A DNA stretch of 64,000 nt from Pseudomonadota bacterium (GCA_027623205.1 JAQBYC010000002.1:7657-71656); one strand, 5' to 3'; positions 6,155 through 56,836 are shown, counted from the first letter of the stretch. Notes: generated by a model not told the origin, from the sequence alone. Numbers and translations: made by a program.

Positions 6155-6228
6155 GGTCGCGAACGCAGCACACGTAATTGCTCTATTCTGAACGTTCTGA
6201 GCACATTCGATCCGCCTGGGCTCTCTAG
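6155..6228 (+). repeat. Intergenic repeat family copy A (5'-shortened), + orientation
   Basis: The core ...gtcgcgaacgcagcacacgtaattgctctattctgaacgttctgagcacattcgatcc...ctctag matches copies B-G. Its 3' CTAG contains the ppdK stop codon. Confidence 0.6.
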
Positions 6229-8906
6229 CGCGAGGCTGAACCATCTGACAATTTCGCCACTGCTTGCGCCGCGGCAAGGCGGGCAATAGGCACCCGAAAG
6301 GGCGAGCAGGACACATAATCCAGGCCAATGGATTGGCAAAAGGCAATGGACGCAGGGTCGCCGCCGTGTTCGCCGCAGATACCCAGCTTTAAATCCGGGC
6401 GGGTCCTGCGTCCCCGCTTGGCCGCCAGCTCCACCAGTTCGCCGACGCCATCCCTGTCCAGTGTCGCGAACGGGTCGGCTTCCAGAATGCCCTTGCTCCG
6501 GTAGTCTGGCAGAAATCCGGCGGAATCATCACGACTGATGCCAAATACAGTCTGGGTCAGATCATTCGTTCCGAACGAGAAGAATTCAGCTGCTTCCGCA
6601 ATTTCTCCGGCCCGCAGGGCGGCCCGGGGCAATTCGATCATGGTGCCGATCAGATAATCCAGTTTGCCGCCCCGTTCGGCTGAAACCCGTTCGGCCACGG
6701 CGGCAATACGTTCCTGCAGGAAGACGAACTCCGCCTTGCTGGCGATCAGGGGGATCATGACCTCCGGCACCACCGCTTCGCCTTGCGCGGCACCGACGAT
6801 CGCGGCTGCCTCGAAGATGGCCCGGGCCTGCATCTCGTAAATTTCCGGATAGGAAATGCCCAGGCGGCAGCCGCGATGGCCCAACATCGGATTGTATTCA
6901 TGTAGCTGGTTGGCTCGATGGCGCAAATCCTCGACCGAGGTCCCCGTCACGGCGGCCAGTTGCGCCAGTTCACCGTCGGACTTCGGCAGGAATTCATGCA
7001 ACGGCGGATCCAATAACCGGATCGTCACCGGCAAGCCGGACATGATGGTGAACAGATCAATGAAATCCTGCCGCTGCATGGGCAGAATCTTGGCCAGGGC
7101 CGCTTGCCGGCCCGCGAGATCCTGGGCCAGAATCATTTCGCGCACAGCCAGAATACGCTCGGTATCGAAGAACATGTGCTCGGTGCGGCACAGTCCGATG
7201 CCTTCAGCGCCGAACCCAATCGCCGCCCTGGCATCCGCTGGCGTTTCGGCATTGGTGCGAACGCCAAGTTGGCGGATCTCGTCCGCCCAGCCCATCAGGG
7301 TGCCAAAGTCGCCGGACATTTCGGGCTGTATCGTCTTAACCTCGCCCAACATGACCTCACCGCTGCTGCCGTCAATAGTGATGACGTCGCCGGCGGCAAT
7401 AGTGATGTCGCCAATGTGCATCGTTTGCGTTTGGTAATCGATCCGCAATTGCCCGGCGCCTGATACACAGGGCCGGCCCATACCGCGGGCAACCACCGCC
7501 GCATGGCTGGTCATGCCGCCGCGTGAGGTCAGGATGCCGCGCGCCGCGTGCATCCCATGGATATCTTCCGGCGAGGTTTCGATCCGTACCAGCAGGATAT
7601 TCTCGCCAGCGTCCGCCAGGGTCACGGCCTGATCGGCGGTAAAGGCAACCTTGCCCGTGGCAGCGCCAGGAGACGCGGGCAAACCGCGGGTCATAACCTG
7701 CCGCATTGCGTTCGGATCCAAAGTGGGGTGCAATAATTGATCCAACGAATCCGGATCGACCCGGTTTATGGCTTCTTCTCGGCTCAACAGTCCTTCCTGC
7801 GCCATTTCCACGGCGATTTTTATCGCGGCACCGGCGGTGCGCTTGCCGGACCGGGTTTGCAGCATGTAAAGGCTGCCCCGCTGCACCGTGAACTCGATGT
7901 CCTGCATATCCCGATAATGGGCTTCCAGGCGTTGATAGATTGCTTCCAACTCGGCGAAAACCGCGGGCATCACCTCTTCCAGAGACGGCTTGTCATCATT
8001 GGCATTCTGGCGCGCGGCCTTGGTTAAATGCTGCGGCGTCCGGATTCCGGCAACCACATCTTCGCCCTGGGCATTGATCAGATACTCACCGAAAAAGCAT
8101 CTGTCGCCGGTGGAAGGATCGCGGGTGAAGGCAACACCCGTGGCCGAATCCTCGCCCATGTTGCCGAACACCATGGCCTGAATATTGACGGCCGTGCCCC
8201 AACTGGCCGGGATATCATGCAGGCGGCGATAGGTGACGGCGCGGGCATTCTGCCAGGACCCGAAAACGGCACCGATGGCGCCCCAGAGCTGGGCGTTCAC
8301 ATCCTGGGGGAAGGCTTCCGACCCTTCACTTTCCACCTTGGCCTTGAATTGATCGACCAGTTGACGCAGATCGTCCGCCGAAAGGGCGGTATCCAGTTGC
8401 AGGCCCAGGTTCTCTTTATGGACCTCCAACAATTCCTCAAAATGATAATGGTCAATACCCAGAACGACATCGGAGTACATTTGGATGAAGCGGCGATAGC
8501 TGTCCCAGGCAAAACGTTCATTGCCGCTTTGCCTGGCCAACGCCAAAACAGTGAGATCGTTCAGCCCCAGGTTCAACACCGTGTCCATCATGCCAGGCAT
8601 AGAGGCCCGGGCGCCGGAGCGGACGGAAACCAGCAACGGATTGTCATGATCGCCGAACTTTGCGCCCGCGAGCCTCTCCATTTCCGCCAGGGCGGCGGCG
8701 GCCTGATCCCGCAAGCCGCAGGGATAGGTTTCATCATTGTCATAATAGGCGGTGCAGACCTCGGTGGTCAGGGTAAAGCCAGGCGGCACCGGCAGGCCCA
8801 AGCTGGACATCTCGGCAAGATTGGCGCCCTTGCCACCCAGTAAATTCTTGTCAGCCGCGCTGCCATCGGCCCGGCCATCGCCAAAGCTGTAAACCCATTT
8901 CGTCAT
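6225..8906 (-). CDS. ppdK: Pyruvate, phosphate dikinase
   Basis: 893 aa. N-terminal ATP-grasp (GGKGANLAEM), central phospho-His domain (GGMTSHAAVVARGMG) and C-terminal PEP-utilising TIM barrel. Confidence 0.9.
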   Translation of the reverse strand: MTKWVYSFGDGRADGSAADKNLLGGKGANLAEMSSLGLPVPPGFTLTTEVCTAYYDNDETYPCGLRDQAAAALAEMERLAGAKFGDHDNPLLVSVRSGARASMPGMMDTVLNLGLNDLTVLALARQSGNERFAWDSYRRFIQMYSDVVLGIDHYHFEELLEVHKENLGLQLDTALSADDLRQLVDQFKAKVESEGSEAFPQDVNAQLWGAIGAVFGSWQNARAVTYRRLHDIPASWGTAVNIQAMVFGNMGEDSATGVAFTRDPSTGDRCFFGEYLINAQGEDVVAGIRTPQHLTKAARQNANDDKPSLEEVMPAVFAELEAIYQRLEAHYRDMQDIEFTVQRGSLYMLQTRSGKRTAGAAIKIAVEMAQEGLLSREEAINRVDPDSLDQLLHPTLDPNAMRQVMTRGLPASPGAATGKVAFTADQAVTLADAGENILLVRIETSPEDIHGMHAARGILTSRGGMTSHAAVVARGMGRPCVSGAGQLRIDYQTQTMHIGDITIAAGDVITIDGSSGEVMLGEVKTIQPEMSGDFGTLMGWADEIRQLGVRTNAETPADARAAIGFGAEGIGLCRTEHMFFDTERILAVREMILAQDLAGRQAALAKILPMQRQDFIDLFTIMSGLPVTIRLLDPPLHEFLPKSDGELAQLAAVTGTSVEDLRHRANQLHEYNPMLGHRGCRLGISYPEIYEMQARAIFEAAAIVGAAQGEAVVPEVMIPLIASKAEFVFLQERIAAVAERVSAERGGKLDYLIGTMIELPRAALRAGEIAEAAEFFSFGTNDLTQTVFGISRDDSAGFLPDYRSKGILEADPFATLDRDGVGELVELAAKRGRRTRPDLKLGICGEHGGDPASIAFCQSIGLDYVSCSPFRVPIARLAAAQAVAKLSDGSASR

Positions 8907-8911
8907 GGCAA

Positions 8912-10981
8912 TCAGCCTTCAACCTCGCTGAAATCAGCAACCTTGTGCAAGGTCGCGCGAATTAGCGACAACAGGCGCAAACGATTGCCTCTTTGCGCGG
9001 CATCGTCGGTATTGACGGTCACGGCATCAAAGAAGTTATCAACCGGTTGCCGCAAACCGGCCATCACCGCCATGGCGACGGCGAAATCCTCCGCCGCAAG
9101 GGCGGCATCGATCTTGGCTACGGACGAGGAAAGCGCCTCGGCCAAGGCCACTTCCTCATCCTGTTGCAACAACGAATCATCAACGGCGCCGTCATGCACC
9201 ATGCCGTCTCGTTTTTCCTCAATGCGCAGGATATTGGCGGCGCGGCGATAGGCCACCAGCAGATTGGCGCCATCCTCACTGCCCAGAAACCCATCAAGGG
9301 CGGTCATCCGCGCCAGCAAGCGGACCAGATCGTCTTCGCCGCCCAGGGCGAAAATCGCCTGTGCGAGGTCGTGCCGCATGCCCGTTTCCCGCAAATGTAC
9401 CTTCAGACGGTCGGCGAAGAAATCCAACAGGCTATGACCTTCTTCCGCCTCTTCCTGTTCCTCGCCGAACTCATAGCTGCCCCGCGCCGTTGCGAATATA
9501 TCTTGCAGCGGCAGGCGCAGCCCGTTCTCCAACACGATGCGGATCACGCCCAGGGCGGCGCGGCGCAGGGCGAAGGGATCGCGGGAACCCGTGGGCTTTT
9601 CGCCGATAAACCAGAATCCGACCAGGGTATCCAGCTTGTCCGCCAGGGCAACACAGGCCGCCGTCGGCGCATGCGGGCAAGCATCGGACGGCCCAGCCGG
9701 GGAATAATGCTGCTGGATCGCGTCAGCCACCGCTTCAACCTCGCCGTCGTTGAGGGCGTAATAACGTCCCATCACGCCCTGGACTTCCGGAAATTCATAG
9801 ACCATGTCGCTGACCAGATCGGCCTTGCACAAATGCGCGGCGCGTCCGGCCAACTCGCCATTCGCGCCGGGCACGTATCGCGCCAGCGCGGCGGCCAGTT
9901 TTTCCATGCGCGTGACTTTTTCGCGCAGGGTGCCCAGTTTGGCGTGAAAGACCATCTCGTTCAGGGCCGGAAGTCTGCTTTCCAGGGATTTTTTTAGATC
10001 CTGTGTCCAAAAAAACTCCGCGTCCGCCAGGCGGGCGCTCAAGACATATTCATTACCGGCAATAATCTGCCCGCCGCCGTCCCGCGCTTCCAAATTCGCC
10101 ACCGTGATGAAATTCGGCGCCAGCTTTCCGTCGCCATCGCGCAAGGACAGGTATTTCTGGTTCACCTTCATGGTGGTCATCAGAACCTCTGCCGGGACAT
10201 CCAGGAAACGGCGGTCAAAAACGCCCAACATGGGCACCGGCCATTCCACCAGGCCGGCGATTTCGTCTACCAGGCCATCGTCGGCTACCAAGGTCAGGCC
10301 GGCAGCCTGTGCCAGCTGCGCCGCGCCGTCCGCGATGCGCTGCCGCCGTTCCTCGGGATCTATCAGCACTTTCGCCGCGAACAGGCTCTCGCGGTAGCCG
10401 GCAAAATCGGAAACGGTAAACGGCTCCGGCGCATGAAAGCGATGGCCCCGTGTTTTACTGTCACTGTCGATGCCGGCAAATGTCAACGGCACGACCGCCC
10501 CGCCGAACAAGGCCAGGATAGAATGCAAGGGGCGCACCCAACGGGTCGTGCCGCTGCCCCAGCGCATGGACTTGGGCCAGGGCAGATCCGCGAAGGCAGC
10601 AGGCAGTATCTCGGCCAGGACATCGCCCGTGGGCCGGCCCTGGCGTTCGATAATGGCAAAGAGGAAGGTACCCTTGGGCGTCTCCCGTTCTTCGCATTGC
10701 GCCCGGGTAACCCCGCTGCCGCGCAAGAAACCCTCGATGGCTTTATCCGGCGCATCCACCCGAGGGCCCCGCCGTTCCTCGCATACATCCGGTTGGGCAA
10801 GAGGCAGGCCGGTGACATGTAGAATAAGGCGGCGCGGCGTGACAAATGCCTTCGCCCTCTCGAAGGGTAATCCCGCCTCCTGCAGACCGGCACGGGTCAA
10901 CCGTTTCAGATCGTCCGCCGCGCGGCCCTGCATGCGGGCTGGAATTTCTTCGCCAAACAATTCCAACAACAGTTCCGCCAT
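8912..10981 (-). CDS. glyS: Glycine--tRNA ligase beta subunit
   Basis: 689 aa. The MAELLLELFGEEIPARMQ N-terminus is typical of GlyS. Only 5 bp before the ppdK start. Confidence 0.9.
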   Translation of the reverse strand: MAELLLELFGEEIPARMQGRAADDLKRLTRAGLQEAGLPFERAKAFVTPRRLILHVTGLPLAQPDVCEERRGPRVDAPDKAIEGFLRGSGVTRAQCEERETPKGTFLFAIIERQGRPTGDVLAEILPAAFADLPWPKSMRWGSGTTRWVRPLHSILALFGGAVVPLTFAGIDSDSKTRGHRFHAPEPFTVSDFAGYRESLFAAKVLIDPEERRQRIADGAAQLAQAAGLTLVADDGLVDEIAGLVEWPVPMLGVFDRRFLDVPAEVLMTTMKVNQKYLSLRDGDGKLAPNFITVANLEARDGGGQIIAGNEYVLSARLADAEFFWTQDLKKSLESRLPALNEMVFHAKLGTLREKVTRMEKLAAALARYVPGANGELAGRAAHLCKADLVSDMVYEFPEVQGVMGRYYALNDGEVEAVADAIQQHYSPAGPSDACPHAPTAACVALADKLDTLVGFWFIGEKPTGSRDPFALRRAALGVIRIVLENGLRLPLQDIFATARGSYEFGEEQEEAEEGHSLLDFFADRLKVHLRETGMRHDLAQAIFALGGEDDLVRLLARMTALDGFLGSEDGANLLVAYRRAANILRIEEKRDGMVHDGAVDDSLLQQDEEVALAEALSSSVAKIDAALAAEDFAVAMAVMAGLRQPVDNFFDAVTVNTDDAAQRGNRLRLLSLIRATLHKVADFSEVEG

Positions 10982-10982
10982 G

Positions 10983-11909
10983 TCAGGCCCCCGACTCGCG
11001 CTTGGGCAGCTTGTCCGGGATCAATTCGCCCACGGCGGTCAGATAAGCGGTGGCGCAGGCCTTTGCCAATTCCCGCACCCGGCCAATATAGGCGGCCCTT
11101 TCGGTCACCGAGATCACCCCGCGGGCGTCCAGCAGATTGAACAGATGCGAGGCTTTTATGCACTGGTCATACGCGGGCAGGGGCAACCCAGCGGCGACCA
11201 GGGCAAGGCATTCCATCTCCGCATCGGCAAAATGGCGAAACAGCATGTCTGTATTGGCATGATTGAAGTTATAGGCCGAGAATTGCTGCTCCGCCGCCAG
11301 ATAGACATCGGCGTAGGATTTCGAACGCGCGTTGCCCGGCTCGTTCCAGGCCAGCTGCTGGAAGTGATCAACGCCCTGCACGTACATGGCCAGACGCTCC
11401 AGGCCATAGGTCAACTCACCGGAAACCGGGTCACAATCATAACCGCCGACCTGTTGGAAATAGGTGAACTGGCTAACCTCCATGCCGTCGCACCAGACCT
11501 CCCAGCCCAGGCCCCAGGCGCCCAGGGTCGGGCTTTCCCAATCATCTTCGACAAAACGAATGTCATGGATGGAGGCATCCAAACCAATCGCCGCCAGACT
11601 GCCGAGATAGAGATCCTGCAAATCGGAAGGTGATGGCTTCATGATCACCTGGAACTGGTAATAATGCTGCAAGCGGTTGGGGTTCTCGCCAAAGCGGCCA
11701 TCGGTCGGCCGGCGCGAAGGTTGTACATACGCGGCATTCCAGCTTTCGCTGCCCAGAGCGCGCAGCGTGGTGGCCCAATGGAAAGTGCCGGCGCCAACTT
11801 CCATATCATAGGGCTGCAGAATGACGCAGCCCTGCTCAGACCAGAAATGCTGCAGAGCGAGGATCAGACCTTGAAAGGTCTTGGGGTTAAAGTTCGGCGT
11901 GCCGGTCAT
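10983..11909 (-). CDS. glyQ: Glycine--tRNA ligase alpha subunit
   Basis: 308 aa. Highly conserved GlyQ sequence ([26 protein letters not shown]-like). Confidence 0.9.
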
Positions 11910-12024
11910 TGCGCAGGCTAGTCCGTGGAATCGTGGGTGCGGCTTGGTTTGCGGGCATGGGTTAACAGGTTCCCGTTCGGCGCAACCTAGTCGCCGCCCC
12001 GCGCATTGGCAATGCCTTCTAAAA

Positions 12025-12243
12025 TCAAACTGAGTAGGGGCAATCGGCGCGTTCGCAGCCAGGTGTATCGACCGCCACGAAATTGCCGCAGACCGCGCAT
12101 TGGCTCAGGTCCAGCGCCTCAATTTTCGTTGCGTCCGCGCTGGCTTCACCCGATTTCGTGGCCCGGCCGCGTAAGGTCTTGGAGACCACAATCACCAAGG
12201 CGGCCACGGCCAGGAACAGCAAAATTTTCGACAAACTAAGCAT
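12025..12243 (-). CDS. Small membrane protein with a C-terminal Cys4 zinc-ribbon-like motif (hypothetical)
   Basis: Internal ATG gives 72 aa. One TM helix ([14 protein letters not shown]), then CAVCG...C....CPY. Sits in a 437-bp gap the larger ORFs leave unexplained. Confidence 0.4.
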
Positions 12244-12310
12244 GGTGGCGCAGCTTACGGAATGAACTGGCGGCGTCAAGACAAAGGATTGATCGCCTGG
12301 CGCCTGGAAC

Positions 12311-12408
12311 ACATTTGATCCAAATGGGCTCGGACTCTTTAAGCATAAAGCAATTGAACCAATTACCTAAGACGCGAGAGCGACTCCGATTAGTTGAAAA
12401 TTGCTCTT
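12311..12408 (-). repeat. Intergenic repeat family copy F, full length, - orientation
   Basis: The reverse complement reads gcaagagcaattttcaactaatcggagtcgctctcgcgtcttaggtaattggttcaattgctttatgcttaaagagtccgagcccatttggatcaaatg, colinear with copy D. Confidence 0.65.
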
Positions 12409-12445
12409 GCGGCATGCTTGATGACGTAAATGACGGTCCTGCCAT

Positions 12446-14050
12446 TCAACGCCCGTCCTGAAGGATCATTTCCGCCGCTTTTTCCGCGATCATCACGACC
12501 GGGGAATTGGTGTTGCCAGAGGTGATGGTCGGCATGATGGAGGCATCAACAACCCGCAGGCCCGCGATGCCGTGCACGGCAAGCCGGTCATCGACCACCG
12601 CCTGGCTATCATGGCCCATGCGACAAGTACTGACGGGGTGGAAGATGGTGGTGGCCAAGTCCCCCGCGGTCTTGACAAGCTCGTCTTCGTCATCGCCGAC
12701 GGTTGGTCCTGGGCGAAACTCTTCCGGTTGGTAGGGGGCCAGGGCATCGGCGGCGCAAATTCTGCGAGTCAGACGGATCGCATCCGCAGCGACCGTGCGG
12801 TCGGCATCGACGGAGAGGTAGTTCGGTCGAATGTGGGGTTGGCGCTGGGGATCAGAGCTGGCGATATGGATGCTACCGCGGCTTTCCGGGCGCAAATTGC
12901 AAACCGAGGCAGTAAAGGCCTCGAAGGGATGCAGGGCCTCGCCCAGCTTGTCCGTACTCAAGGGTTGGACGTGATATTGCAGATTTGCGGTTTCCTTACC
13001 GGCGTCGCTTTTGGCGAAGGCGCCAAGCTGGCTCGGTGACATGGTCAGCGGGCCGGTGCGGAACAACGCATATTCCAGGCCCATGGCGGCACGCCCCAGC
13101 AAGCTGTTGGCGCGCAGGTTCAGGGTCCGGGTGTTTGAAACCTTGTAGACCAGGCGAATTTGCAAATGATCCTGCAAATTCTCTCCCACGCCTGGCAATT
13201 CGTGCCGCACCGGAATGCCGTGTTGTCGCAGCAATTGGCCCTGCCCTATCCCGGAAAGCTCCAACAACTGCGGCGAGGCGACGGCGCCGCCCGAAAGGAT
13301 AACGGCGCCCCGCGCCCGGGCCCCGGCCGGCGCGCCGTCGTAAATATATTCCAGCCCCGTGGCGCGGCCGTCTTCTATGACGATCCGCGTCGCCTGAGCA
13401 TGGGTCAGAACCTTCAGGTTTGACCGCTGCATGACTGGTTTCAAAAATGCCTTGGCCGCGCTCCATCGCACGCCGCGCCTTTGGTTGACCTGAAAATAGC
13501 CGCAGCCCTCGTTGTCGCCGCGATTGAAATCATCGGTTTTGGGAATGCCGACCTCGGCCGCCGCCTCGCGAAAGGCCGCCAGTATTTCCCAGGACAGCCG
13601 TTGCTCCTCCACCCGCCACTCGCCATCCGTCCCATGCATATCATCGGCGCCGGCGTAATAATCCTCGGTTTTGCGGAAATACGGCAGCACATCGTCCCAT
13701 GACCAGCCCGCATTACCCATCTGGCCCCATTGGTCATAGTCACGAGCCTGGCCACGCATATAGATCATGCCATTGATGGATGAACAGCCACCCAGGACCT
13801 TGCCGCGCGCATAGTCGATGGCGCGACCGTTCAGGCCCGCTTCGGCCTCCGTCTTGAAGCACCAGTCGGTGCGCGGATTGCCGAGGGTATAGAGGTAGCC
13901 GACGGGAATATGGATCCAGTGGTAGTTATCCTTGCCTCCCGCTTCCAACAGCAGCACCGAGTTTTTGGGATCGGCCGTAAGGCGGTTGGCCAATACGCAG
14001 CCGGCGGTGCCAGCGCCGACGATGATGTAATCGAAGCTGTCGATGGTCAT
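12446..14050 (-). CDS. GMC family FAD oxidoreductase (choline/alcohol dehydrogenase-like)
   Basis: N-terminal FAD fold DYIIVGAGTAGCVLANRL. GMC signature regions. 534 aa. Confidence 0.8.
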   Translation of the reverse strand: MTIDSFDYIIVGAGTAGCVLANRLTADPKNSVLLLEAGGKDNYHWIHIPVGYLYTLGNPRTDWCFKTEAEAGLNGRAIDYARGKVLGGCSSINGMIYMRGQARDYDQWGQMGNAGWSWDDVLPYFRKTEDYYAGADDMHGTDGEWRVEEQRLSWEILAAFREAAAEVGIPKTDDFNRGDNEGCGYFQVNQRRGVRWSAAKAFLKPVMQRSNLKVLTHAQATRIVIEDGRATGLEYIYDGAPAGARARGAVILSGGAVASPQLLELSGIGQGQLLRQHGIPVRHELPGVGENLQDHLQIRLVYKVSNTRTLNLRANSLLGRAAMGLEYALFRTGPLTMSPSQLGAFAKSDAGKETANLQYHVQPLSTDKLGEALHPFEAFTASVCNLRPESRGSIHIASSDPQRQPHIRPNYLSVDADRTVAADAIRLTRRICAADALAPYQPEEFRPGPTVGDDEDELVKTAGDLATTIFHPVSTCRMGHDSQAVVDDRLAVHGIAGLRVVDASIMPTITSGNTNSPVVMIAEKAAEMILQDGR

Positions 14051-14155
14051 GTTTCGCCTCTATCTCCTGTCCCTATCAGCCGTATTGCCCGACCGGAGCC
14101 AGACCAGAATAGACGGCAAGTGGGCGCCGCCACAACACGGCAACGCATTGTAAAG

Positions 14156-18632
<4,477 letters not shown>

Positions 18633-24303: not shown

Positions 24304-24398
24304 TTAGAACGATTTTCAATTAAGTGGAGCCGCTAGTGCAACTTAGGCAATTGGTTCAATTTCTCTATTCTGAGAATTCCGACGGATTTGGCTCAAAT
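24304..24398 (+). repeat. Intergenic repeat family copy B, full length, + orientation
   Basis: ttagaacgattttcaattaagtggagccgctagtgcaacttaggcaattggttcaatttctctattctgagaattccgacggatttggctcaaat. The GST stop codon follows 6 bp later. Confidence 0.65.
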
Positions 24399-24403
24399 AT
24401 GCT

Positions 24404-25042
24404 CTACGCCACGCCTGCATCCGCCATCCAGGCCACCATATTGGGCAGTTGCAACAGCGCCTCCACATAGGCCCGGCAGGTATCATCCAGGGGCACGCTG
24501 TAGTGGTTGAAACGCACGGCCACGGGGGCAAACATGGCATCGGCGGCAGAGAATGGACCGAACAGGAAATCGCCCCGATTTTGGCAACTGCCCTGATGGA
24601 CCTGCCGTGCCTCACGCCAAATGTCTGTCATACGCTTCACGTCCGCCTTGGCCGCCATTGAAAGAGATGGCATGGGCACCCGCGCTTGACAGTTGAAGGA
24701 CAGTTCGTCCCGCAGGCTGGTAAATCCCGCATGCATCTCCGCCGCCAGGACGCGAGCACGGGCCCGCAGTGCCGCATCCCGCGGCCAAATCAGCAAGTCG
24801 GGATGATTTTCGGCAACGAATTCGATGATGGCGAGGCTCTCCCATATGGTCTGGTCCCGCGTCTGCAGGATTGGCACCCGGCCGCCCGGCGAATACGCCA
24901 AAATTTTATCCCGGGTGTCAGGTTGATCCAGATCCACCGTCACCAGCTCGAACGGCAGCTCAAATTGACGCAGTAGCAGCCAGACGCGCAAGGACCATGA
25001 TGACAGGTTCCTGTCGCCAATGATCAAACGATACGTCGGCAT
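24404..25042 (-). CDS. Glutathione S-transferase family protein
   Basis: Start at internal ATG (MPTYRLIIGDRNLSSWSLR), 212 aa. Thioredoxin-like N-domain plus helical C-domain. Confidence 0.8.
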   Translation of the reverse strand: MPTYRLIIGDRNLSSWSLRVWLLLRQFELPFELVTVDLDQPDTRDKILAYSPGGRVPILQTRDQTIWESLAIIEFVAENHPDLLIWPRDAALRARARVLAAEMHAGFTSLRDELSFNCQARVPMPSLSMAAKADVKRMTDIWREARQVHQGSCQNRGDFLFGPFSAADAMFAPVAVRFNHYSVPLDDTCRAYVEALLQLPNMVAWMADAGVA

Positions 25043-31361: not shown

Positions 31362-31647
31362 TGCAAGTCCCTTCAATTCATAATTAGATCAGGGGCTCTC
31401 GATCTTAGCCGAGCCGCACCTTGTTGTTGATGCACGCGTTCCAAGCGTAGCTAGTTCGGATGCGCAAGCAGCGTAGCAAGATACGTCGAGGTGAGGTGCA
31501 ACGAGTGCACCTACATGGCACCGTCGGCGCGACGTTGCAAGCATAGATTTTGAAATTCGAAGACCGGTTACTGCGCCCGAAGACACGGCGGGCGGTCAGC
31601 GCCAAGCATCCAATCAGCATTCCTGACCGTCGCGGGCGGCGGGCGGC

Positions 31648-31720
31648 GGTCGACTTAAGCAATTGGTTCGATCGCTCTATTCTGACGATTCTGAGCACAT
31701 TTGGATCTCGTGTGTTCTAG
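31648..31720 (+). repeat. Intergenic repeat family copy C (5'-shortened), + orientation
   Basis: gtcgacttaagcaattggttcgatcgctctattctgacgattctgagcacatttggatctcgtgtgttctag. The terminal CTAG contains the ubiA stop. Lies inside the cspA upstream leader. Confidence 0.6.
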
Positions 31721-32652
31721 GCATGGCCCAGCAGGATACTTAAAAAGACAAGCCAGCCGAACCATGTGTTGGAGCGGAATTTGGCCAGACAATCCGCTGG
31801 ATCATTGATATTGACCTGGGCTGCCTGCCAAAACAATTGCAGGGCCGCCACGGCCAGACCAGCCAGGAACAGCGGCTGCAATTCCACCAACCATCCGGCT
31901 AATCCGAACAGGATGATTGCCGCACCGTAAAACAGCCACAACATCGGCCGGGTATGGGACCCGAGGCGCCGGGCCGAAGATTTGATGCCGATCAGGGCGT
32001 CGTCCACCTTGTCCTGATGGGCATAGATGGTGTCATAACCGAGGGTCCAGGCAATACCGCCCAGATACAACAGCACGGGCGCGGCGCCAAGGTCCCCGCG
32101 TACCGCGGCCCAACCCAACAACGCGCCCCAGTTAAAGGCCACGCCCAGGAAAATCTGGGGCCACCAGGTAATGCGCTTCATGAATGGATAGATAACGATG
32201 GGCGCCAAGGACATGACGCCGATTCCAATGGCGAAGGCGTTGAAACGCAGCAGTATATTCAGGCCGATCAGGGCCAGGAAGACCATGAATGCCGCGGCCT
32301 GACCGACGCTGATTTCGCCGCTGGGGATGGGCCGGCCACGGGTTCGTTCAACCTGACCATCATAGTCCCGGTCGGCGATATCGTTCCAGGCGCAACCCGC
32401 GCCCCGCATCGATAGGGCGCCAACGGCAAAACCCGCCAATAGCCATGGATCGGGCCAGCCGGGACTGGCCATGGCCAGTGACCACCAGCAGGGCCACAGC
32501 AACAGCCAGGTGCCGATGGGCCGGTCCAGTCGGGCCAGACGCAAATAAGGCCGCAAACGCATTGGCGCATAACGGGCGATCCAGCCGCTCGCTGGAATAT
32601 CAGTAAATGATCCGGGTGTTTCCCTGCGTGCCATCAGGCTAGAATACTGCAT
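31717..32652 (-). CDS. ubiA: 4-hydroxybenzoate polyprenyltransferase
   Basis: NDIADRDYD Asp-rich motif. Multiple TM helices. LRLARLDRPIGTWLLLWP N-terminal signature. The true start may be an internal ATG (32634 or 32562). Confidence 0.8.
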   Translation of the reverse strand: MQYSSLMARRETPGSFTDIPASGWIARYAPMRLRPYLRLARLDRPIGTWLLLWPCWWSLAMASPGWPDPWLLAGFAVGALSMRGAGCAWNDIADRDYDGQVERTRGRPIPSGEISVGQAAAFMVFLALIGLNILLRFNAFAIGIGVMSLAPIVIYPFMKRITWWPQIFLGVAFNWGALLGWAAVRGDLGAAPVLLYLGGIAWTLGYDTIYAHQDKVDDALIGIKSSARRLGSHTRPMLWLFYGAAIILFGLAGWLVELQPLFLAGLAVAALQLFWQAAQVNINDPADCLAKFRSNTWFGWLVFLSILLGHA

Positions 32653-34929: not shown

Positions 34930-35868
34930 ATGTCCACGCCGACCCTGCCAGCGACGTTCGCGGAAGCGTTCACTGTTCCCTCGACTGGCGCGGTGGAAAT
35001 TTGCGTCTATCGATTGCACGCAGCGCCCGGAGATGGCCCGGCCTTGATCTGGGCTCACGCCAACGGTTTCAACGCCGGCTGCTACCAGCCATTGCTGAAC
35101 CGGCTAAGTTGCCATTTTCAGGTTTTTGCCTTTGATGCCCGCGGTCATGGCGCCTCTGCCAAGCCGAGGGACAACATGGAGCACGACTATGCCCTGCTCC
35201 GATTTGCCGAAGACCTGGGCGCCATCGTGGCCCGGGTGCGGCAAATGATCGGCACGGCGACACCCCTGCATTTCGCTTCCCATTCCCTGGGCGGTCTGGC
35301 GGCCGTGCTATTGGAGGCGGAATTGGCCGAGGCGCCGTTTGACAGCCTGACCCTGTTCGAGCCGCCAATCTATCCACCGAGCGGTCACGCGGAACGGGCC
35401 GCCGCCTTGGCGCACGCACCGGCCTTTGTTCGCTGGGCCGCCGGACGGCGCAACAATTTTCCCGATCGCGGTGCCCTGCGCGCCGAGGTGGCGCGCATCA
35501 TTACCTATCGCCGTTTCGCCAACGACATGATGGCGGCCTATTTGGCGGCGGCGGTGGAACCCGCGCCAGACGGCGGCTTGGCCCTGCGCTGTCCCGGTGT
35601 CATCGAATCCGCTATTTATGCCAATTGTCCCGATAGCGGGATATTCGAGCGGACCGCCAAAGTGGCGACACGCACCCGCATCTATGCCACCGATCAGACG
35701 GTATTGCCCGACTTGCATTCCTGGGCGCCGGGGACCATGACTGCCATCGCCGCCAACATGCAAACGGCCGAGGCGCGCACCATGCCGGGCTGTTTGCATT
35801 TAATGGTCCAGGAAGACCCCGGCGCCTGCGCCGCCGCCGTCATCGAACACGCGTTGAGGCATACTTGA
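34930..35868 (+). CDS. Alpha/beta-fold hydrolase
   Basis: HSLGG nucleophile elbow. An HGxS-like oxyanion region. 312 aa. Confidence 0.65.
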   Translation: MSTPTLPATFAEAFTVPSTGAVEICVYRLHAAPGDGPALIWAHANGFNAGCYQPLLNRLSCHFQVFAFDARGHGASAKPRDNMEHDYALLRFAEDLGAIVARVRQMIGTATPLHFASHSLGGLAAVLLEAELAEAPFDSLTLFEPPIYPPSGHAERAAALAHAPAFVRWAAGRRNNFPDRGALRAEVARIITYRRFANDMMAAYLAAAVEPAPDGGLALRCPGVIESAIYANCPDSGIFERTAKVATRTRIYATDQTVLPDLHSWAPGTMTAIAANMQTAEARTMPGCLHLMVQEDPGACAAAVIEHALRHT

Positions 35869-35961
35869 TCCACATGTGCTCAAACCCCGCAAGAAAGAGA
35901 GCCTGAACCAATGACTTAAAGTCGTGTTGCGACTCCACCACCTAATTGGAAATCGCGCTAC
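35862..35961 (-). repeat. Intergenic repeat family copy G, full length but diverged, - orientation
   Basis: acttgatccacatgtgctcaaacccc...gcctgaaccaatgacttaaagtcgtgttgcgactccaccacctaattggaaatcgcgctac is the reverse-complement match to copies D and E. Its 3' end overlaps the TGA stop of the alpha/beta hydrolase gene. Confidence 0.55.
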
Positions 35962-39880: not shown

Positions 39881-39894
39881 GGCCCGGCGCGGCG

Positions 39895-41985: not shown

Positions 41986-41987
41986 TT

Positions 41988-42092
41988 CTAGCGCAATCTT
42001 CAATTAAATTGAGTCGCGAACACGGCTCAAGTAATCCGTTCAATTGCTCTATTCTGAAAATTCCGAGCGCATTTGGATCAAATTTCTTCTTA
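41988..42092 (+). repeat. Intergenic repeat family copy D, full length, + orientation
   Basis: ctagcgcaatcttcaattaaattgagtcgcgaacacggctcaagtaatccgttcaattgctctattctgaaaattccgagcgcatttggatcaaatttcttcttag. Starts 2 bp after the tlpA stop codon. Flanked by CTAG...TTAG. Confidence 0.7.
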
Positions 42093-42106
42093 GTGGAGTG
42101 GCCGTG

Positions 42107-43048: not shown

Positions 43049-43098
43049 ACAAAAAAATCCAATGCGGCCTCGATCGATAGCCAAACGGGATCAGGAGA

Positions 43099-44745: not shown

Positions 44746-45006
44746 TTAACGGCCTTTGGTCTGTTGCAGTATTTGTTGCAATGGCAGAATTTTGCCGGCG
44801 TTGACCGCATCGCGGGCCGGATCATGATCGCCGCGGCCACTTCCCTTGCGGCGCCCCTGTTGCACCAAGATCAGCCTCTCTCGATGGGCCCAGGACAGCG
44901 CCGTTTCCGACCCAGCCTTCGGCCATGCCCGATGACCCGCCCTTGCCATCACCGGCAAAACAGGGGCGGCGGCCAGGATCAGAAGGGAGACGAGGCGTTG
45001 ATGCAT
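44746..45006 (-). CDS. Small secreted PepSY-domain protein
   Basis: Signal peptide MHQRLVSLLILAAAPVLPVMA and a C-terminal ARDAVNAGKILPLQQILQQ PepSY-like motif. 86 aa. Confidence 0.45.
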   Translation of the reverse strand: MHQRLVSLLILAAAPVLPVMARAGHRAWPKAGSETALSWAHRERLILVQQGRRKGSGRGDHDPARDAVNAGKILPLQQILQQTKGR

Positions 45007-45210
45007 GCCCCATAGTAGCCCACACCATTCGAACCGTGAGTGAACGAATCAGCCATCCGCCCAAGGCGGTTGGCTGCGTTGGTTTCGATTGAGACGGAAA
45101 AACGCCAGCCAATGTTGACTTCACGGGCCGGGTCCGGGTATCAGACGGCGAGCGTGGCGGCCGGCCCGGCCCCAACAGGTACCTTTACATCAACGGCGGA
45201 TCGATAAGGC

Positions 45211-46893
<1,683 letters not shown>

Positions 46894-46894
46894 T

Positions 46895-47542: not shown

Positions 47543-47576
47543 GAAACCCCGCTGGCGCAAGAGTGCTCGGCCGCAC

Positions 47577-48443: not shown

Positions 48444-48862
48444 ACCTCACCTAACCCTGCGGCTTAAATTTCCCGGAAAACAGGGAAATATCTTACAAAT
48501 CCCTATTCCCCGCATCCCATGGCAATCGCCGCCAGTTTCGACTCGCCTACCATACCATGGTTTAACTCCGGGGTCGTAACTAATGTCTTAACGGCGATCT
48601 TCGCCGGAAATCAGCCACCACAACGCCACGCCATGACAGCGAACGACCAATGCGCAGAGAAAATCACCCCGATTTGGTACCACACGAAAATGCCGTTGGC
48701 TAGATTGTGCATGATTATTGTATCGAGTCGATCACAACTGTTGCATTTTTGCAGCGCTGCATTAGACCTATGAACACCCGCCCCGCCATGCTGAAGGCTG
48801 TTTACACACAGGGAAACGCGGTACCTAATATAGTCACAATCTTGAACTCAAGGAATGGCCCC

Positions 48863-50218
48863 ATGCCGCAGAACGAGCCGGTTGTCGACGATGCCGTCGC
48901 CCCGCGCGATAATCCAATGCTACAAGGTAATTTTGCGCCGGTGGATGTGGAAGCCACGGCCCATGACCTTATGGTCGAGGGCACAATTCCCAGCGAGTTG
49001 AATGGCGCGCTGCTGCGTGATGGACCGAACCCCATTGCCCCAGGTTCTGGTCACCATTGGTTCATGGGCGATGGCATGATCCATGGCATTACCATCCGCG
49101 ACGGCGGCGCCCAGGTCTATCGCAACCGCTGGATCCGGACGGCCCAGGTCGAAGCGCTGTTGGGCTTGCCGAAAGCGCCGGTCAGCCCGCACCAGCCCAT
49201 GCAGCAAGGCTCCGGCAGCGTCAATGTGATTGGCCATGGCGGCCGCATCCTGGCCTTGCCGGAGGTGGGCTTGCCATGGCAACTGGACGGCGAATTGAAC
49301 ACCATCGGCCAGCATGATTTCGACGGCGCCCTGCGCAGCAATATGACGGCGCATCCAAAGATCGATGCCGCGAACGGCGAACTGGTCTTTTTCGGCTATG
49401 ATTTTGGCCCCGTCAGCCTGCGCTACCACGTGGCCGACCAGGCCGGAAAACTGCTGCGCACGGTCGAGATCGAAAAGCCCATCCCGACCATGATGCATGA
49501 TTTTGGCGTCACGGCGACCCGGGTCATCTTCATGGATCTGCCGGTTGCCTTTAGTTTGGAAATGGCGCTAAGCGGCAAGGGGCTGCCCTTCCATTGGCGT
49601 GATGATATGCCGGCCCGTCTGGGCATTTTACCCCGTGCCGCCACCAAGGACGCGGTGCAATGGATAGAGATCGATCCCTGCTACGTCTACCATCCCCTGA
49701 ACGCCTATGACGATGGTGCCGAGATCATATTCGACGTGGTGCGTCATGACCGCACCTTCGTACAGGGGCAATTGGAAGGTGGCGGCGAGACGCGCCTGGA
49801 ACGCTGGACCATCGATCCCGCCAAGGAGCGGGTGCGCCGGGAGGCGATCAGCGGTATGGGCCAGGAATTCCCCCGGGTCGACCCGCGGGTGGAATGTCAT
49901 CCCCACCGTTATGGCTATACGGTGGGTTTCGGCATGGGCGTGGGCCCAGGCAATCTGCTGAAACATGACCTTGAACAACGCACCATGGCGGTGCACGACG
50001 TCGGCCCGGAGGGTGCGGCCAGCGAGGGCGTGTTCGTACCGAGCGGCGATGGCGAGGACGCGGGCTACGTGCTGTCGGTGGTCTATGACGGCCGCACCGG
50101 CAAAAGCCATCTACGGATCATCGATGCCCAGGATTTCGCCGCCCCGCCGGTGGCAAAGATCCACCTGCCGGTCCGCGTCCCCTTCGGCTTCCACGGCAAC
50201 TGGCTCCCCGCCGCCTGA
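48863..50218 (+). CDS. Carotenoid cleavage oxygenase family protein (apocarotenoid/lignostilbene dioxygenase-like)
   Basis: Four conserved His ligands are spread through the seven-bladed propeller (HHWFMGDGMIHG, HDFG, ...). Start at internal ATG (MPQNEP). Confidence 0.75.
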   Translation: MPQNEPVVDDAVAPRDNPMLQGNFAPVDVEATAHDLMVEGTIPSELNGALLRDGPNPIAPGSGHHWFMGDGMIHGITIRDGGAQVYRNRWIRTAQVEALLGLPKAPVSPHQPMQQGSGSVNVIGHGGRILALPEVGLPWQLDGELNTIGQHDFDGALRSNMTAHPKIDAANGELVFFGYDFGPVSLRYHVADQAGKLLRTVEIEKPIPTMMHDFGVTATRVIFMDLPVAFSLEMALSGKGLPFHWRDDMPARLGILPRAATKDAVQWIEIDPCYVYHPLNAYDDGAEIIFDVVRHDRTFVQGQLEGGGETRLERWTIDPAKERVRREAISGMGQEFPRVDPRVECHPHRYGYTVGFGMGVGPGNLLKHDLEQRTMAVHDVGPEGAASEGVFVPSGDGEDAGYVLSVVYDGRTGKSHLRIIDAQDFAAPPVAKIHLPVRVPFGFHGNWLPAA

Positions 50219-50345
50219 TCTGGCGGCATTTGACGCGGCATTAATGGGCGGCGGTGGCATTGCCCGGATTGTCTAACGGGATCGGGCCATTTATGATGCG
50301 CCGCACGAGATGCCGCGCCCACGCGGCGCTGGGGAGCCCACCTGA

Positions 50346-53249: not shown

Positions 53250-53977
53250 CCTCATTGCCACGGGAAGCACCGGCAAAACGCCTTGGCTTGGTGATCGACC
53301 TGGATACCTGCGTCGGCTGTCATGCCTGCGCCGTGAGTTGCAAGGAGTGGAACACCACCGGCTATCACGCGCCCCTGCCCGATAGCGACCCCTATGGCAA
53401 GGACGTGGACGGGGTCTGGCTGAACCGCGTGCATGGCTATGAAACCAGTTCGGCGGCAGGCGCGCGCACGGTCTATTTCCCGCGCTCCTGCCTGCATTGC
53501 GAAGAGGCGCCCTGTGTCACCGTCTGTCCGACGGGGGCGTCCTATAAACGTACAGAGGATGGCATCGTCCTGGTCGATGAGGACATTTGTATCGGCTGCA
53601 AGCTGTGTTCCTGGGCCTGTCCCTATGGCGCCCGGGAATTCGATCGCGACGGCGGCGTGATGAAAAAGTGCACCTTGTGCATCGACCGCATCTACAACGA
53701 AAATCTGGAAGAGATCGATCGACAGCCGGCCTGTGTCAACGCCTGCCCGGCCAAGGCCCGGCATTTCGGTGACTTCAACGATCCGGATTCAATTGTCTCC
53801 GAGTTGACCGCCGCCCGTGGCGGAGTGGAGCTGTTGCCGGAAATGGGCCTGAAGCCGACCAACCGGTATCTGCCGCCCCGGCCTCGCGCCACCATGGGCG
53901 ATGGCGCCAGCCTGAAGGATGCGCCCGCCGCCGACGGCGGCTTCCTGGGCTGGATCGATCGGGCATTGTCCCGCTAG
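53246..53977 (+). CDS. soeB: 4Fe-4S ferredoxin-type subunit (DmsB family), SoeB-like
   Basis: Four cysteine clusters (CVGCHACAVSC, CLHCEEAPC, CIGCKLCSWAC, CTLC...C). 243 aa. 4-bp overlap with the A subunit. Confidence 0.6.
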   Translation: MTSLPREAPAKRLGLVIDLDTCVGCHACAVSCKEWNTTGYHAPLPDSDPYGKDVDGVWLNRVHGYETSSAAGARTVYFPRSCLHCEEAPCVTVCPTGASYKRTEDGIVLVDEDICIGCKLCSWACPYGAREFDRDGGVMKKCTLCIDRIYNENLEEIDRQPACVNACPAKARHFGDFNDPDSIVSELTAARGGVELLPEMGLKPTNRYLPPRPRATMGDGASLKDAPAADGGFLGWIDRALSR

Positions 53978-54014
53978 CCGCGGCATTAGAGTGCATTGAG
54001 AGTACAGACTAAGC

Positions 54015-54980
54015 ATGCAACCCGCCTATTCCGTCATTTTCCTGACCACCGCCACGGGCGCCGGTTACGGCCTGCTGGCCCTGCTGGGTGTTCTCCGCGC
54101 CATGGATAGCCTGCCGGACGAGCGCGCCTTTGGCCTGCTCGCCCTGGGTCTAGCCATGGCTTTGATCAGCGCCGGGCTGTTGGCCTCGGCGGCCCATCTC
54201 GGCCGCCCGGAGCGGGCCTGGCGGGCCTTCAGCCAATGGCGCTCCTCCTGGCTGTCCCGGGAAGGGGTTCTGGCCGTGGCCGGCTATGGCCCGGCAGCGC
54301 TGTTCGCCTTTGCCTGGTTAATTCTGCAACGCAACGACGGCCTTTGGCCCCTGGCCGGTCTGGCAGCGGCGGTGCTGTCCGTCGCCACCGTCTACAGCAC
54401 CGCCATGATCTATCGTTCCCTGGCCGCCATTCCCCGCTGGCATCATCCCCTGGTGCCATGGGTCTATCTGATCCTGGCGCTGGCCACGGGCGCCCTGTGG
54501 CTCAACGCGGTGCTGGCGTCCTTGGTCGGCGACCATGGTGGCCATGCCCTGGTGCGGGCGATTTGCTTCGCCGCCCTGGCCGCCGCCTGGTTGTTGAAGA
54601 TCGCCTATTGGCGCGCCATCGACGGCGCCACCGGCGAAAGCAGCACGGCCACCGCGATCGGGTTGGGCGGCCTGGACGGCCTGGGCCCGGTGCGCCCCCT
54701 GGATCCGCCCCATGTGCAGGACAATTATCTGCTGAAGGAAATGGGTTTCGCCATCGCCCGCAAGCACGCCGCCAAGCTGCGCCGCCTGACCCATCTGATG
54801 GCCTTCCTGGTGCCTCTGGTCTTGGTGGTGGTTCAGTCCGTCGCTTCCGGCCCCGTCAGCCTGTTGGCGGCGGCCCTGGCAGCCGTAACCGTCAGCTTCG
54901 GCGTCGTCGTTGAACGCTGGCTGTTCTTCGCCGAAGCCCAGCACAAGGTAATGCTGTACTACGGCACGGAGCGCATCTGA
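54015..54980 (+). CDS. soeC: DmsC/NrfD-like membrane anchor subunit, SoeC-like
   Basis: 321 aa. About 8 hydrophobic helices. Directly downstream of the FeS subunit. Confidence 0.55.
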   Translation: MQPAYSVIFLTTATGAGYGLLALLGVLRAMDSLPDERAFGLLALGLAMALISAGLLASAAHLGRPERAWRAFSQWRSSWLSREGVLAVAGYGPAALFAFAWLILQRNDGLWPLAGLAAAVLSVATVYSTAMIYRSLAAIPRWHHPLVPWVYLILALATGALWLNAVLASLVGDHGGHALVRAICFAALAAAWLLKIAYWRAIDGATGESSTATAIGLGGLDGLGPVRPLDPPHVQDNYLLKEMGFAIARKHAAKLRRLTHLMAFLVPLVLVVVQSVASGPVSLLAAALAAVTVSFGVVVERWLFFAEAQHKVMLYYGTERI

Positions 54981-55043
54981 CTCATTTCCGAACCGGCCGG
55001 AGCTGCCGGCGGGGCGGGCAACTCGGAACGCTTTTGCAATGGG

Positions 55044-56714
55044 TCAGAACAAGCCGGTGATCTGACCGTTTTCGTCCAGGCCGATGGTTTCCGCCGCCGG
55101 GCGGCTGGGCAGACCGGGCATGGTCATGATGTCGCCGCAGACCACGACCAGAAATTCGGCGCCCGCCGCCAGGCGGATTTCCCGGATCGAGACGACATGG
55201 CCCGAGGGCGCGCCCTTGCGGTTCGGATCGGTGGAAAAACTGTATTGCGTCTTGGCCACACAAATCGGCAGATGGCCATAGCCCTGATCCTGCAATTGCT
55301 GAAAACGCTCGCTCACCAGGCGGTCGGCGCTGATATCATCGGCGCCGTATATGCGCTGGGCGACGGTACGCATCTTCTCCCACAACGGCATCTCGTCGCC
55401 ATACAAGGTGTTGAAATCGGATTCACCGGCCTGCGCCAGCTCCGCCACGCGGAGCGCCAGTGCCTCGGCCCCAGCCCCGCCGTCGGACCAGTGGCTGCAA
55501 ACGAAAGCGTCCACATCAAAGCCCTTGCAGTAATCGGTAATCGCCGCCATTTCGTCCTTCGTGTCGGCATCGAAACGGTTGATGGCGACGACGGCACGCA
55601 TGCCGAATTGGCCAATATTTTCCAGATGCCGGCCCAGATTCTCCAGACCCCGCTGCAAGGCGGCGACATCTTCCCTGCCCAGGTCGTCCCGGGCCACGCC
55701 ACCATGCATCTTCAGGGCCCGGACCGTGGCCACCAGCACCACCGCGTCCGGCCGCAAGCCCGACTTGCGGCATTTGATATTGAAGAACTTCTCCGCCCCC
55801 AGGTCGGCACCGAAGCCGGCTTCGGTGACGACAAAATCGGCCATCTTCAAGGCTGCCCTGGTGGCGATCACGGAATTGCAGCCATGGGCGATGTTGGCGA
55901 AGGGTCCCCCGTGGATAAAGGCAGGATTGTTTTCCAGGGTTTGCGCCAGATTGGGCTGGATCGCGTCCTTCAACAACGCCGCCATGGCGCCGTCGGCATT
56001 TAGGTCCCGCGCCGTGACCAGGTCCCGGTCACGATTTTGCGCCACCACCATATTGCCCAGGCGGCGGCGTAGATCGTCGCTGTCCGAGGCCAGACAGAAC
56101 ACCGCCATCACTTCCGAAGCCACGGTAATGTCAAAGCCATCCTGGCGGGGAAAGCCGTTGGCCACGCCGCCCAGATTGGCCACGATGGAACGCAGGGCCC
56201 GGTCGTTCATGTCGACGACCCGGCGCCAGGAAATACGCCGGGCATCAATATCCAGCTTGTTGCCCCAGTAAATATGGTTGTCCAGCATGGCCGCCAGCAG
56301 GTTGTTGGCCGCGCCAATGGCATGGAAATCACCGGTGAAATGCAGGTTGATATCCTCCATGGGCACAACCTGGGCATAACCGCCGCCCGCCGCCCCGCCC
56401 TTGGTCCCGAAACACGGACCCAGGCTGGGTTCCCGCAAACAGATCGCAGTCTGCTTGCCGATCCGGTTCAGGGCATCGCCCAAGCCGACGGTGGTCGTCG
56501 TCTTGCCCTCGCCGGCCGGTGTCGGCGTGATGGCCGTGACCAGGATCAGTTTGCCCGTGGGCCGGTCCCCCAGAGAGGCTAGATAGTCCAGGTCCACCTT
56601 GGCCTTATCAGGGCCGTAGCGGTACAGATGCGTGGCGGGGATATTCAGTTTTTCGCCAATCTGTTCGATGGGCAAGGCGGTGGCTTGACGGGCGATTTCA
56701 ATATCTGGCTGCAT
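55044..56714 (-). CDS. fhs: Formate--tetrahydrofolate ligase
   Basis: 556 aa. [16 protein letters not shown]-loop and the conserved FTHFS signature regions. Confidence 0.9.
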
Positions 56715-56731
56715 TTTTGGATATCCCTAAT

Positions 56732-56836
56732 CTAGCGCAATTTCCAGTTAACTGGAGTCGCCCACACGACTTAAGTGATTGGTTCAATTGCGCATCCTGA
56801 AGGAGTCTGTGCACATTTGTATCAAATGTACACTAG
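56732..56836 (+). repeat. Intergenic repeat family copy E, full length, + orientation
   Basis: ctagcgcaatttccagttaactggagtcgcccacacgacttaagtgattggttcaattgcgcatcctgaaggagtctgtgcacatttgtatcaaatgtacactag. Flanked by CTAG...CTAG. The 3' CTAG contains the stop of the M20 peptidase gene. Lies 18 bp upstream of the fhs start. Confidence 0.7.

Follow-up and report, generated by a model that had tools for sequence, protein, structure and literature searches.

Dispersed ~105-bp double-hairpin intergenic repeats, probably a CTAG-inserting MITE-like element, in an uncultured alphaproteobacterium

The window is a 64,000-nucleotide stretch of the Pseudomonadota assembly GCA_027623205.1 (JAQBYC010000002.1:7657-71656), from an uncultured alphaproteobacterium of a Rhodospirillales-like lineage. 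In the collection searched, the best match to its GyrB is at most 91% identical, and identity to Ferrovibrio GyrB is ~72%. Its ArgH is 100% identical to an NCBI Proteobacteria bacterium protein, and ENA ERZ23495043 and Logan SRR2027830 contain the same DNA. Its intergenic spacers carry a dispersed family of non-coding repeats that measure ~105 bp when complete, fold into two hairpins, and begin and end at CTAG. Their GC content is ~40%, compared with ~60% for the window. These repeats are probably a non-autonomous transposable element, similar to a miniature inverted-repeat transposable element (MITE), that inserts at CTAG.

Seven copies, designated A to G, lie in the window; their coordinates were refined with a covariance model, whose scores are given in bits. 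Copy A (6132-6228, +; 29 bits) is degenerate, with the 3' arm of hairpin 1 partly deleted and hairpin 2 eroded. Its 5' TTAG contains the stop codon of a response-regulator gene (5407-6135, +), and its 3' CTAG contains that of ppdK (6225-8906, -). Copy F (12303-12409, -; 104 bits) is full length and lies in sense between tandem genes, a GMC oxidoreductase gene on one side and a 72-aa open reading frame (ORF) and glyQ on the other. Copy B (24304-24408, +; 84 bits), also full length, separates convergent TAXI-TRAP and GST genes, and the GST gene takes its stop codon from the 3' CTA of the copy (24404-24406). Copy C (31654-31721, +) lies between ubiA and a cspA-like gene (both -), antisense to transcription, and its 3' CTAG is the ubiA stop. 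Its 5' half is absent and a GC-rich GGCGGCGGG run adjoins it; the GC-rich run GTCGCGGGCGGCGGGCGGCGGTCGAC (31610-31652) stands in place of the missing half. Copy G (35853-35961, -; 32 bits), between convergent hydrolase and TIGR02302 genes, spans the full length, carries a 3-nt insertion, and has eroded ends, GTAG...CAAC. Copy D (41988-42093, +; 93 bits) is full length and directly follows tlpA, in sense between tandem genes. Copy E (56732-56837, +; 104 bits) is the best preserved, with hairpin 1 at 56735-56793 and hairpin 2 at 56809-56833. It is antisense to both flanking genes, and its 3' CTAG is the stop codon of an ArgE/DapE-family gene (56833-58194, -).

The initial annotation had proposed a dispersed intergenic family that no ORF explains, and both parts of that proposal hold. 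All seven segments are colinear in a MAFFT alignment. A profile built from them returned those seven sites and nothing else over the 64-kb window (nhmmer E 1e-21 to 1e-35), a search that is circular because the same copies made the profile. Sequence of the same organism flanking the window, 10 kb on the right (L016) and 7.6 kb on the left (L017) for a total of 17.6 kb, contains five copies outside the profile-building set, four in L016 and one in L017 (nhmmer E 1e-10 to 1e-22). Because copies that were not used for the profile were recovered in flanking sequence, the family is real and dense. It comprises 12 copies over ~82 kb of one organism, all intergenic and none accounted for by a reading frame. 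The same profile also matches copies in two syntenic relatives, L009 and L012, and the copies thus align beyond the window. Pairwise identity among copies is 55-79%.

Widening the profile to 16 sequences and raising the sensitivity of the search (--max, E up to 50) gave no extra copies in the window. A remnant suspected at 48695-48760 is accordingly no member of the family, as it has no match even at E 50 with --max. The stretch 48695-48765 is a separate AT-rich sequence that contains the small palindrome TTGTATCGAGTCGATCACAA, has CTAG and TTAG at its borders, and lies just upstream of a gene at 48707.

A full copy consists of CTAG, a three-tier hairpin of ~60 nt (hairpin 1), a linker of ~15 nt, a hairpin of 25 nt (hairpin 2), and a second CTAG. 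The consensus reads CTAG MGCAATTTTCAATTAAnnGGAGTCGC-GAAC-GCGACTTAAGTAATTGGTTCAATTGCTCT ATTCTGAAGATTCT GAGCACATTTG-GAT-CAAATGTGCTC TAG. Folds of single sequences give the same two-hairpin architecture, in which AGAGCAATT pairs with AATTGCTCT at the base of hairpin 1, while GAGCACATTTG-GAT-CAAATGTGCTC forms the 10-11-bp stem of hairpin 2. The outer arms of both hairpins make up a short terminal inverted repeat, CTAGMGCA...TGCKCTAG, and the family termini are written CTAGAGCA...TGCTCTAG. The ends had been taken for direct repeats on account of three TTCAATT/ATCAAAT boxes; these boxes are arms of the two hairpins, and the ends are inverted. A half-repeat described as ATTCTGA-N-ATTCTGAG is present in copies A to D and L016a and is confined to some copies rather than general. 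Most well-preserved copies have (C/T)TAG at both start and end, and L016c and L016d stand head-to-tail with one CTAG common to both.

Two short matches, L017 and L012_H, were considered as solo hairpin modules and rejected because both run on into the linker, which makes them truncations. GANTC (CcrM-type) sites occur at 10 per kb within the window copies (698 bp in total) versus 1.3 per kb across the window. They take the form GAGTC in hairpin 1 and either GATTC or GAGTC in the linker, and the enrichment probably reflects one or two ancestral sites.

The copies have no preferred strand. Six lie on the plus and six on the minus strand, interleaved over the 82 kb (-,+,-,+,+,-,+,+,-,+,-,-), and the 5:2 bias noted originally is a sampling effect. 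Position relative to genes is more restricted: the neighboring genes are convergent at 4 of 12 copies, tandem at 8, and divergent at none. Within tandem contexts, four copies are in sense (F, D, L016b, L017) and four antisense (C, E, L016c, L016d). The terminal TAG is the stop codon of a neighboring gene at nine termini in 8 of the 12 copies, namely A (at both ends), B, C, E, L016a, L016b, L016d, and L017. CTAG is depleted in the window (41 observed, 73 expected), and TAG ends 16 of 43 long window ORFs (37%), an unusually large share for a bacterium.

These features suggest how the family may have spread. A non-autonomous element would insert at the rare palindrome CTAG, and duplication of TA or of the whole CTAG on insertion would restore the stop codon. 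Since CTAG is depleted in genes, many of the sites usable without harm would overlap C-TAG stop codons, and copies would accumulate at the 3' ends of genes, in convergent or tandem spacers, because these sites are stops that duplication restores. Movement would be in trans by a DDE transposase, perhaps of the IS630, IS427, or IS5 type. Any effects on RNA ends or stability would be by-products and not the purpose of the element. This apparent CTAG, and hence TAG-stop, route of insertion offers a simple and testable reason for the 3'-end position of the copies.

Support for insertion comes from defined ends, dispersal in many copies, a tandem pair with one CTAG, stop-codon termini, gain and loss of copies, and decay. 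There is no preference for strand (6:6) or for transcription (4:4), and no copy occupies a divergent, promoter-bearing spacer. The identity of 55-79% and the many degraded hairpins fit neutral decay. A size of ~105 bp, a non-coding nature, and multicopy dispersal all match the generic definition of a MITE, and, as with MITEs, insertions are polymorphic between related genomes. Three explanations had been offered at the outset: a MITE derived from an IS5-type transposon, a protein-binding element resembling repetitive extragenic palindromes (REPs) or bacterial interspersed mosaic elements (BIMEs), and a multicopy small RNA. A CTAG-targeting MITE fits best because of the CTAG ends, the tandem pair with one CTAG, the TAG-stop termini, and the filled and empty sites; the IS5-type origin is unproven.

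Related genomes contain filled, decayed, and empty versions of the same sites. L009 (GCA_041294325.1), whose GyrB is 91% identical to that of the window, has three copies in 22 kb; its site F is filled, its site H holds a full copy (95 bits), and its site A is a 9-bp spacer. L012 (GyrB 89%) has two copies, with site F filled and only hairpin 1 at site H, while its site A contains 86 bp of unrelated sequence with one marginal match. L023 (GyrB 87%) has no copies, and its F, H, and A spacers measure 40, 45, and 2 bp. L024 (GCA_018667855.1; GyrB 85%) likewise has none at F, H, and A, with spacers of 52, 2, and 46 bp. The remaining relative, L015 (ArgH 92%), has no family copies in 21 kb. There, a bare ATAG ends ubiA and no element follows, in contrast to the CTAG and copy C of the window; site G holds at most a possible 3' remnant; and at site D a different, 270-bp palindromic repeat adjoins the same tlpA flank at CTAG.

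Sites A, C, F, and H thus differ in occupancy among the window, L009, L012, L015, L023, and L024. Since F and H are filled in the clade of the window, L009, and L012 and short in the outgroups L023 and L024, both sites were gained in the ancestor of that clade. Site H was later eroded in the window and half-deleted in L012. In the window it lies at 14050-14156 (-), in the PBP-GMC spacer, and keeps only its flanks and the TCTATTCTG motif (14105-14113); with the full copy of L009 in the orthologous spacer, this confirms a remnant that had been suspected at 14090-14160. Copies have therefore been gained, inherited, and lost by erosion. Empty sites read TAG, ATAG, or TTTA, and the genomes are too diverged for a comparison of junctions at the level of single bases.

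An IS1595-family transposase gene (L009 1268-2173, -) lies ~900 bp from the copy at L009 267-374, which is without its 5' CTAG. This IS1595-like gene has no ends matching the repeat.

Several observations weigh against a transposable element. Past CTAGMGCA the terminal repeat is weak (5.2 of 12 matches versus 3.1 by chance), and ~200 kb of clade loci hold no autonomous insertion sequence (IS) with matching ends. No clean pair of filled and empty sites exists at near-identical sequence, as the nearest relatives are at ~91% GyrB identity. Because CTAG is palindromic and the same at every copy, a target duplication is inseparable from the terminal repeat, and a TA duplication (IS630- or IS427-like) looks the same here as a CTAG duplication (IS5-like). 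Near-identical pairs, which would indicate recent movement, do not occur among the copies. At site F, the window copy and L009_F share 57% identity, compared with 71-75% between window copy F and the other full-length window copies. The family may still have been active or homogenized after the lineages split, or the site may have been hit twice; the closer likeness of F to its paralogues in the window could also reflect selection or gene conversion. Finally, 5 of the 11 pairs of hairpin 2 covary, for example with C-G and U-A split 6:5, and these compensatory changes could likewise reflect selection or gene conversion.

The main rival explanation draws on several of these points. The repeats could be RIME- or BIME-like mosaic elements maintained by the host, with palindromes that bind a host protein or protect mRNA 3' ends, and with recombination as the means of spread and homogenization. 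Within a genome, paralogous copies resemble one another more closely than they do their positional counterparts in other genomes, and all locations are 3'-proximal, with none of the 12 in divergent spacers. The family also has a modular look, as hairpin 1 of L009_H is of the window type and its hairpin 2 of the L009_F type, and the motif CTATTCTGA..CATTTGA is common to a different repeat family in L015. However, site H has decayed freely in two lineages, and the hairpins are eroded in most copies. Although copy E folds at -36.7 kcal/mol (z = -5.0 versus shuffled sequence) and L009_F reaches z = -5.8, 5 of the 7 copies folded have eroded hairpins (z 0.0 to -2.2).

Statistics of the structure bear on the same question. 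RNAalifold predicted zero pairs from the raw MAFFT alignment, which included partial copies, and gave hairpin 2 plus a small alternative hairpin from full-length copies. Hairpin 1 was consequently drawn by hand from single-sequence folds, and the covariance model was built on this hand-drawn structure. The resulting alignment holds 16 copies from three genomes; it is fitted to the model, and its sequences are related and fall into subfamilies. Because the inner stem of L009_F and L012_F is misregistered in it, the counts for helix 3 (65% paired) are underestimates. Standard pairs fill 76.5% of pair cells, compared with 73.7% after shuffling, or from column conservation alone, which indicates mostly inherited palindromy. 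Double-sided changes, however, occupy 24 cells compared with 11.3 in shuffles, a level reached by 0 of 500 shuffles. A covariance model, which the initial annotation had suggested as a check for conserved structure, thus detects an excess of double-sided changes, while overall pairing is nearly that of shuffled alignments.

Together with the covarying pairs of hairpin 2, this gives modest support to maintenance of the palindromes, and it does not distinguish nucleic-acid structure from paired sites for one protein. The covariation may be a subfamily effect among related sequences, and paired binding sites of a single transposase would covary likewise. Maintenance by the host is unlikely, but it is the best placed of the alternatives to a CTAG-inserting, MITE-like element.

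Other CTAG-bounded repeats occur in the relatives. The palindromic repeat of L015 is ~270 bp long and present in two copies that are 90% identical (9060-9329 and 16491-16763); the arms of one element show 72% complementarity to each other, and its ends read CTAGAGCGSTTCCGGGYTATTCTGAMCCATTTGA. It shares with the window family a CTAGAGC terminus and the CTATTCTGA..CATTTGA motif. An IS5/IS427-like IS of ~845 bp (L015 ~15655-16500), with two ORFs, DUF4096, and DDE_Tnp_1, splits a hydrolase gene and directly adjoins the CTGG/CTAG end of this 270-bp repeat. As a candidate parent of the repeats this IS, the only one of its type in the loci examined, was rejected, since its ends, GGYCAC..., are unlike the repeat ends. 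Bru-RS elements of Brucella are hot spots for IS711, an element of the IS5/IS427 group that targets YTAR, and the IS beside the palindromic repeat of L015 resembles insertion of IS711 into Bru-RS. In L024, a Rhodospirillaceae metagenome-assembled genome (MAG; GCA_018667855.1), an element of ~106 bp bounded by CTAG and CTAA (11849-11954, -) contains the hairpins AGATCAAA...TTTGATCT and TAGAGCAAC...GTTGCTCTA and scores 20 bits with the covariance model (E 0.005). This element possibly represents a third, distantly related family.

These elements raise the prospect of a wider, undescribed alphaproteobacterial superfamily, of which the window family would be one branch: CTAGAGC-bounded, with two hairpins and a common CTAG-specific machinery that mobilizes or maintains its members. 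Candidate members are the window family, the 270-bp repeat of L015, the 106-bp element of L024, and a CTAGAGCG-initiated repeat of Sinorhizobium meliloti pSymB. Such elements might be partly domesticated as 3'-end modules that provide a stop codon and CcrM-methylated GANTC sites. A superfamily of this kind is distinctly improbable.

A derivative of a single-strand (HUH/Y1) transposon is a further alternative, and the chance that the repeats are one is small. Such an element would be an IS200/IS605-type palindrome-associated transposable element (PATE) or a REPIN driven by a REP-associated tyrosine transposase (RAYT); its subterminal hairpins would be recognized on one DNA strand, and CTAG would act as left target and right cleavage site alike. 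The prominent hairpins close to each end and the weak true terminal inverted repeat would suit it, as would the single tetranucleotide that bounds both ends and is common to tandem copies. The ends of IS608-type elements carry similar hairpins. Against this, the two hairpins of the window family are unrelated in sequence, the 82 kb show no strand bias, and no Y1 or RAYT gene occurs in any locus examined.

The weakest alternative, a multicopy structured RNA acting as a small RNA or as a cis-acting element of the 3' untranslated region in one orientation, gains from the folds of the best copies, far beyond those of shuffled sequence, and from a ratio of G-U to A-C pairs of 67:34 in the modelled orientation, but is very improbable, as tandem contexts are split 4:4 between sense and antisense, a scan of six copies, with copy E left out, shows none overlapped by a sigma-70-like promoter or intrinsic terminator, Rfam offers no match even at E = 10, and 27 of the G-U cells fall at three inherited consensus positions of an alignment fitted to the structure, which leaves 40:34 and no clear strand-specific RNA signal across the 16 copies.

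Database comparisons yielded no named relative, in agreement with the initial annotation, which had described the family as previously unnoted. In Rfam, no part of the window matches at the gathering threshold, and at E = 10 there are only chance-level matches (E > 2) at copies D and E. Copy D and the consensus have no blastn match, even at E = 10, in PLSDB (72,556 plasmids, including pSymA and pSymB). Exact patterns are weak probes for diverged relatives; GTTCAATTKCTCTATTCTGA in GTDB genome contigs and CTCTATTCTGANNNTTCYGAGC in JGI metagenome contigs each gave three chance matches that cover the pattern only, and the source species is evidently absent from both sets. Given an uncultured lineage and no database match, the family appears to be undescribed.

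A conserved ORF adjoins site F. Between the GMC oxidoreductase gene and glyQ lies an ORF of 72-77 aa with no Pfam match, within window 11990-12260 (-), L009 16380-16625, L023 16085-16340, and L024 11580-11853. The stretch before it, TTGAC...CCGTAAGCTGCGCCACCATGCTTAGCCTGCC.AAAA, is near-invariant in all five genomes. Conservation of non-coding DNA at this level is unusual, and the stretch could be a promoter or leader or a small RNA.

The density and position of the repeats have practical consequences. At the sampled density of one copy per ~7 kb, if it applies to the genome as a whole, several hundred copies would be present. Gene annotation is affected because the elements supply or overlap stop codons. 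The ppdK frame (window 6225-6262), for example, is ~10 codons longer than in L009 and L023; it enters copy A and ends at its TAG. In MAG assembly, dispersed repeats break contigs, and they also bear on strain typing.

Among known systems, MITEPsy1 of Pseudomonas syringae pv. phaseolicola is a 100-nt element, probably derived from the IS5-type ISPsy2, that targets CTAG or YTAA and duplicates 4 nt on insertion; its 18-nt terminal inverted repeat matches that of a known IS, and experiments have demonstrated its transposition (PMC3189936). The window family resembles it in being ~100 nt, non-coding, multicopy, and bracketed by a CTAG/YTAA-type target, and MITEPsy1 is a functional precedent for a CTAG-inserting MITE of ~100 nt. 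Unlike MITEPsy1, the window family has a terminal repeat of ~8 bp, two large hairpins, old copies (55-79% identity), an unrelated sequence, and no known partner IS.

Other mobile and palindromic elements differ more. IS630 and IS870, both of the IS630 family, target CTAG with duplication of TA, and the target supplies or restores a stop codon. Those elements are autonomous, whereas the loci examined here contain no IS630-like transposase or matching terminal repeat. REP and BIME sequences comprise palindromic units of 20-40 bp in mosaic clusters associated with RAYT. The unit here measures ~105 bp and its two hairpins differ from each other, and the loci examined contain no RAYT gene. PATEs derived from IS200/IS605 are strand-biased with similar subterminal hairpins, in contrast to the 6:6 interleaved copies and unrelated hairpins of the window family.

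The closest likeness in layout is to the double-palindrome repeats of other alphaproteobacteria. RIMEs (Rhizobium-specific intergenic mosaic elements), reportedly described by Osteras et al. in 1995, are intergenic alphaproteobacterial elements of ~108 bp with two large palindromes and no known function. The window family, at ~105 bp with two large palindromes and an intergenic location, is similar to RIME1 and RIME2. S. meliloti pSymB is expected to carry RIMEs and Sm-repeats, and pSymB served as a proxy for a RIME reference sequence: neither PLSDB nor, with the covariance model and nhmmer, 200 kb of pSymB holds a match to the window family. The hosts also differ, being Rhodospirillales-like for the window family and Rhizobiaceae for RIMEs. 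RIME1, RIME2, and the Sm-repeats of S. meliloti are cited in PMC2573895. The 200-kb pSymB sample does have dispersed double-palindrome repeats of ~105 bp that are presumably RIMEs or Sm-repeats (L019 30058-30161 and 24902-25005, L020 27594-27695 and 23482-23588, and L022 13508-13612). A type that starts with CTAGAGCG and ends near CTAAG follows the order of the window family, from CTAG through hairpin and linker to hairpin; this likeness is taken as an architectural lead and not as homology.

Bru-RS1 and Bru-RS2 of Brucella are related palindromic repeats of 103 and 106 bp, as PMC10800456 relates from Halling and Bricker 1994. Compared by description only, they and the window family are alike in being palindromic, ~105 bp, and alphaproteobacterial, with hosts in different orders. 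The repeats of the window are thus a new family of a familiar kind, a MITE-like, RIME- and Bru-RS-like double-palindrome intergenic repeat, and no new kind of system. With them, a Rhodospirillales-like lineage joins the alphaproteobacteria that carry ~105-bp double-palindrome intergenic repeats.

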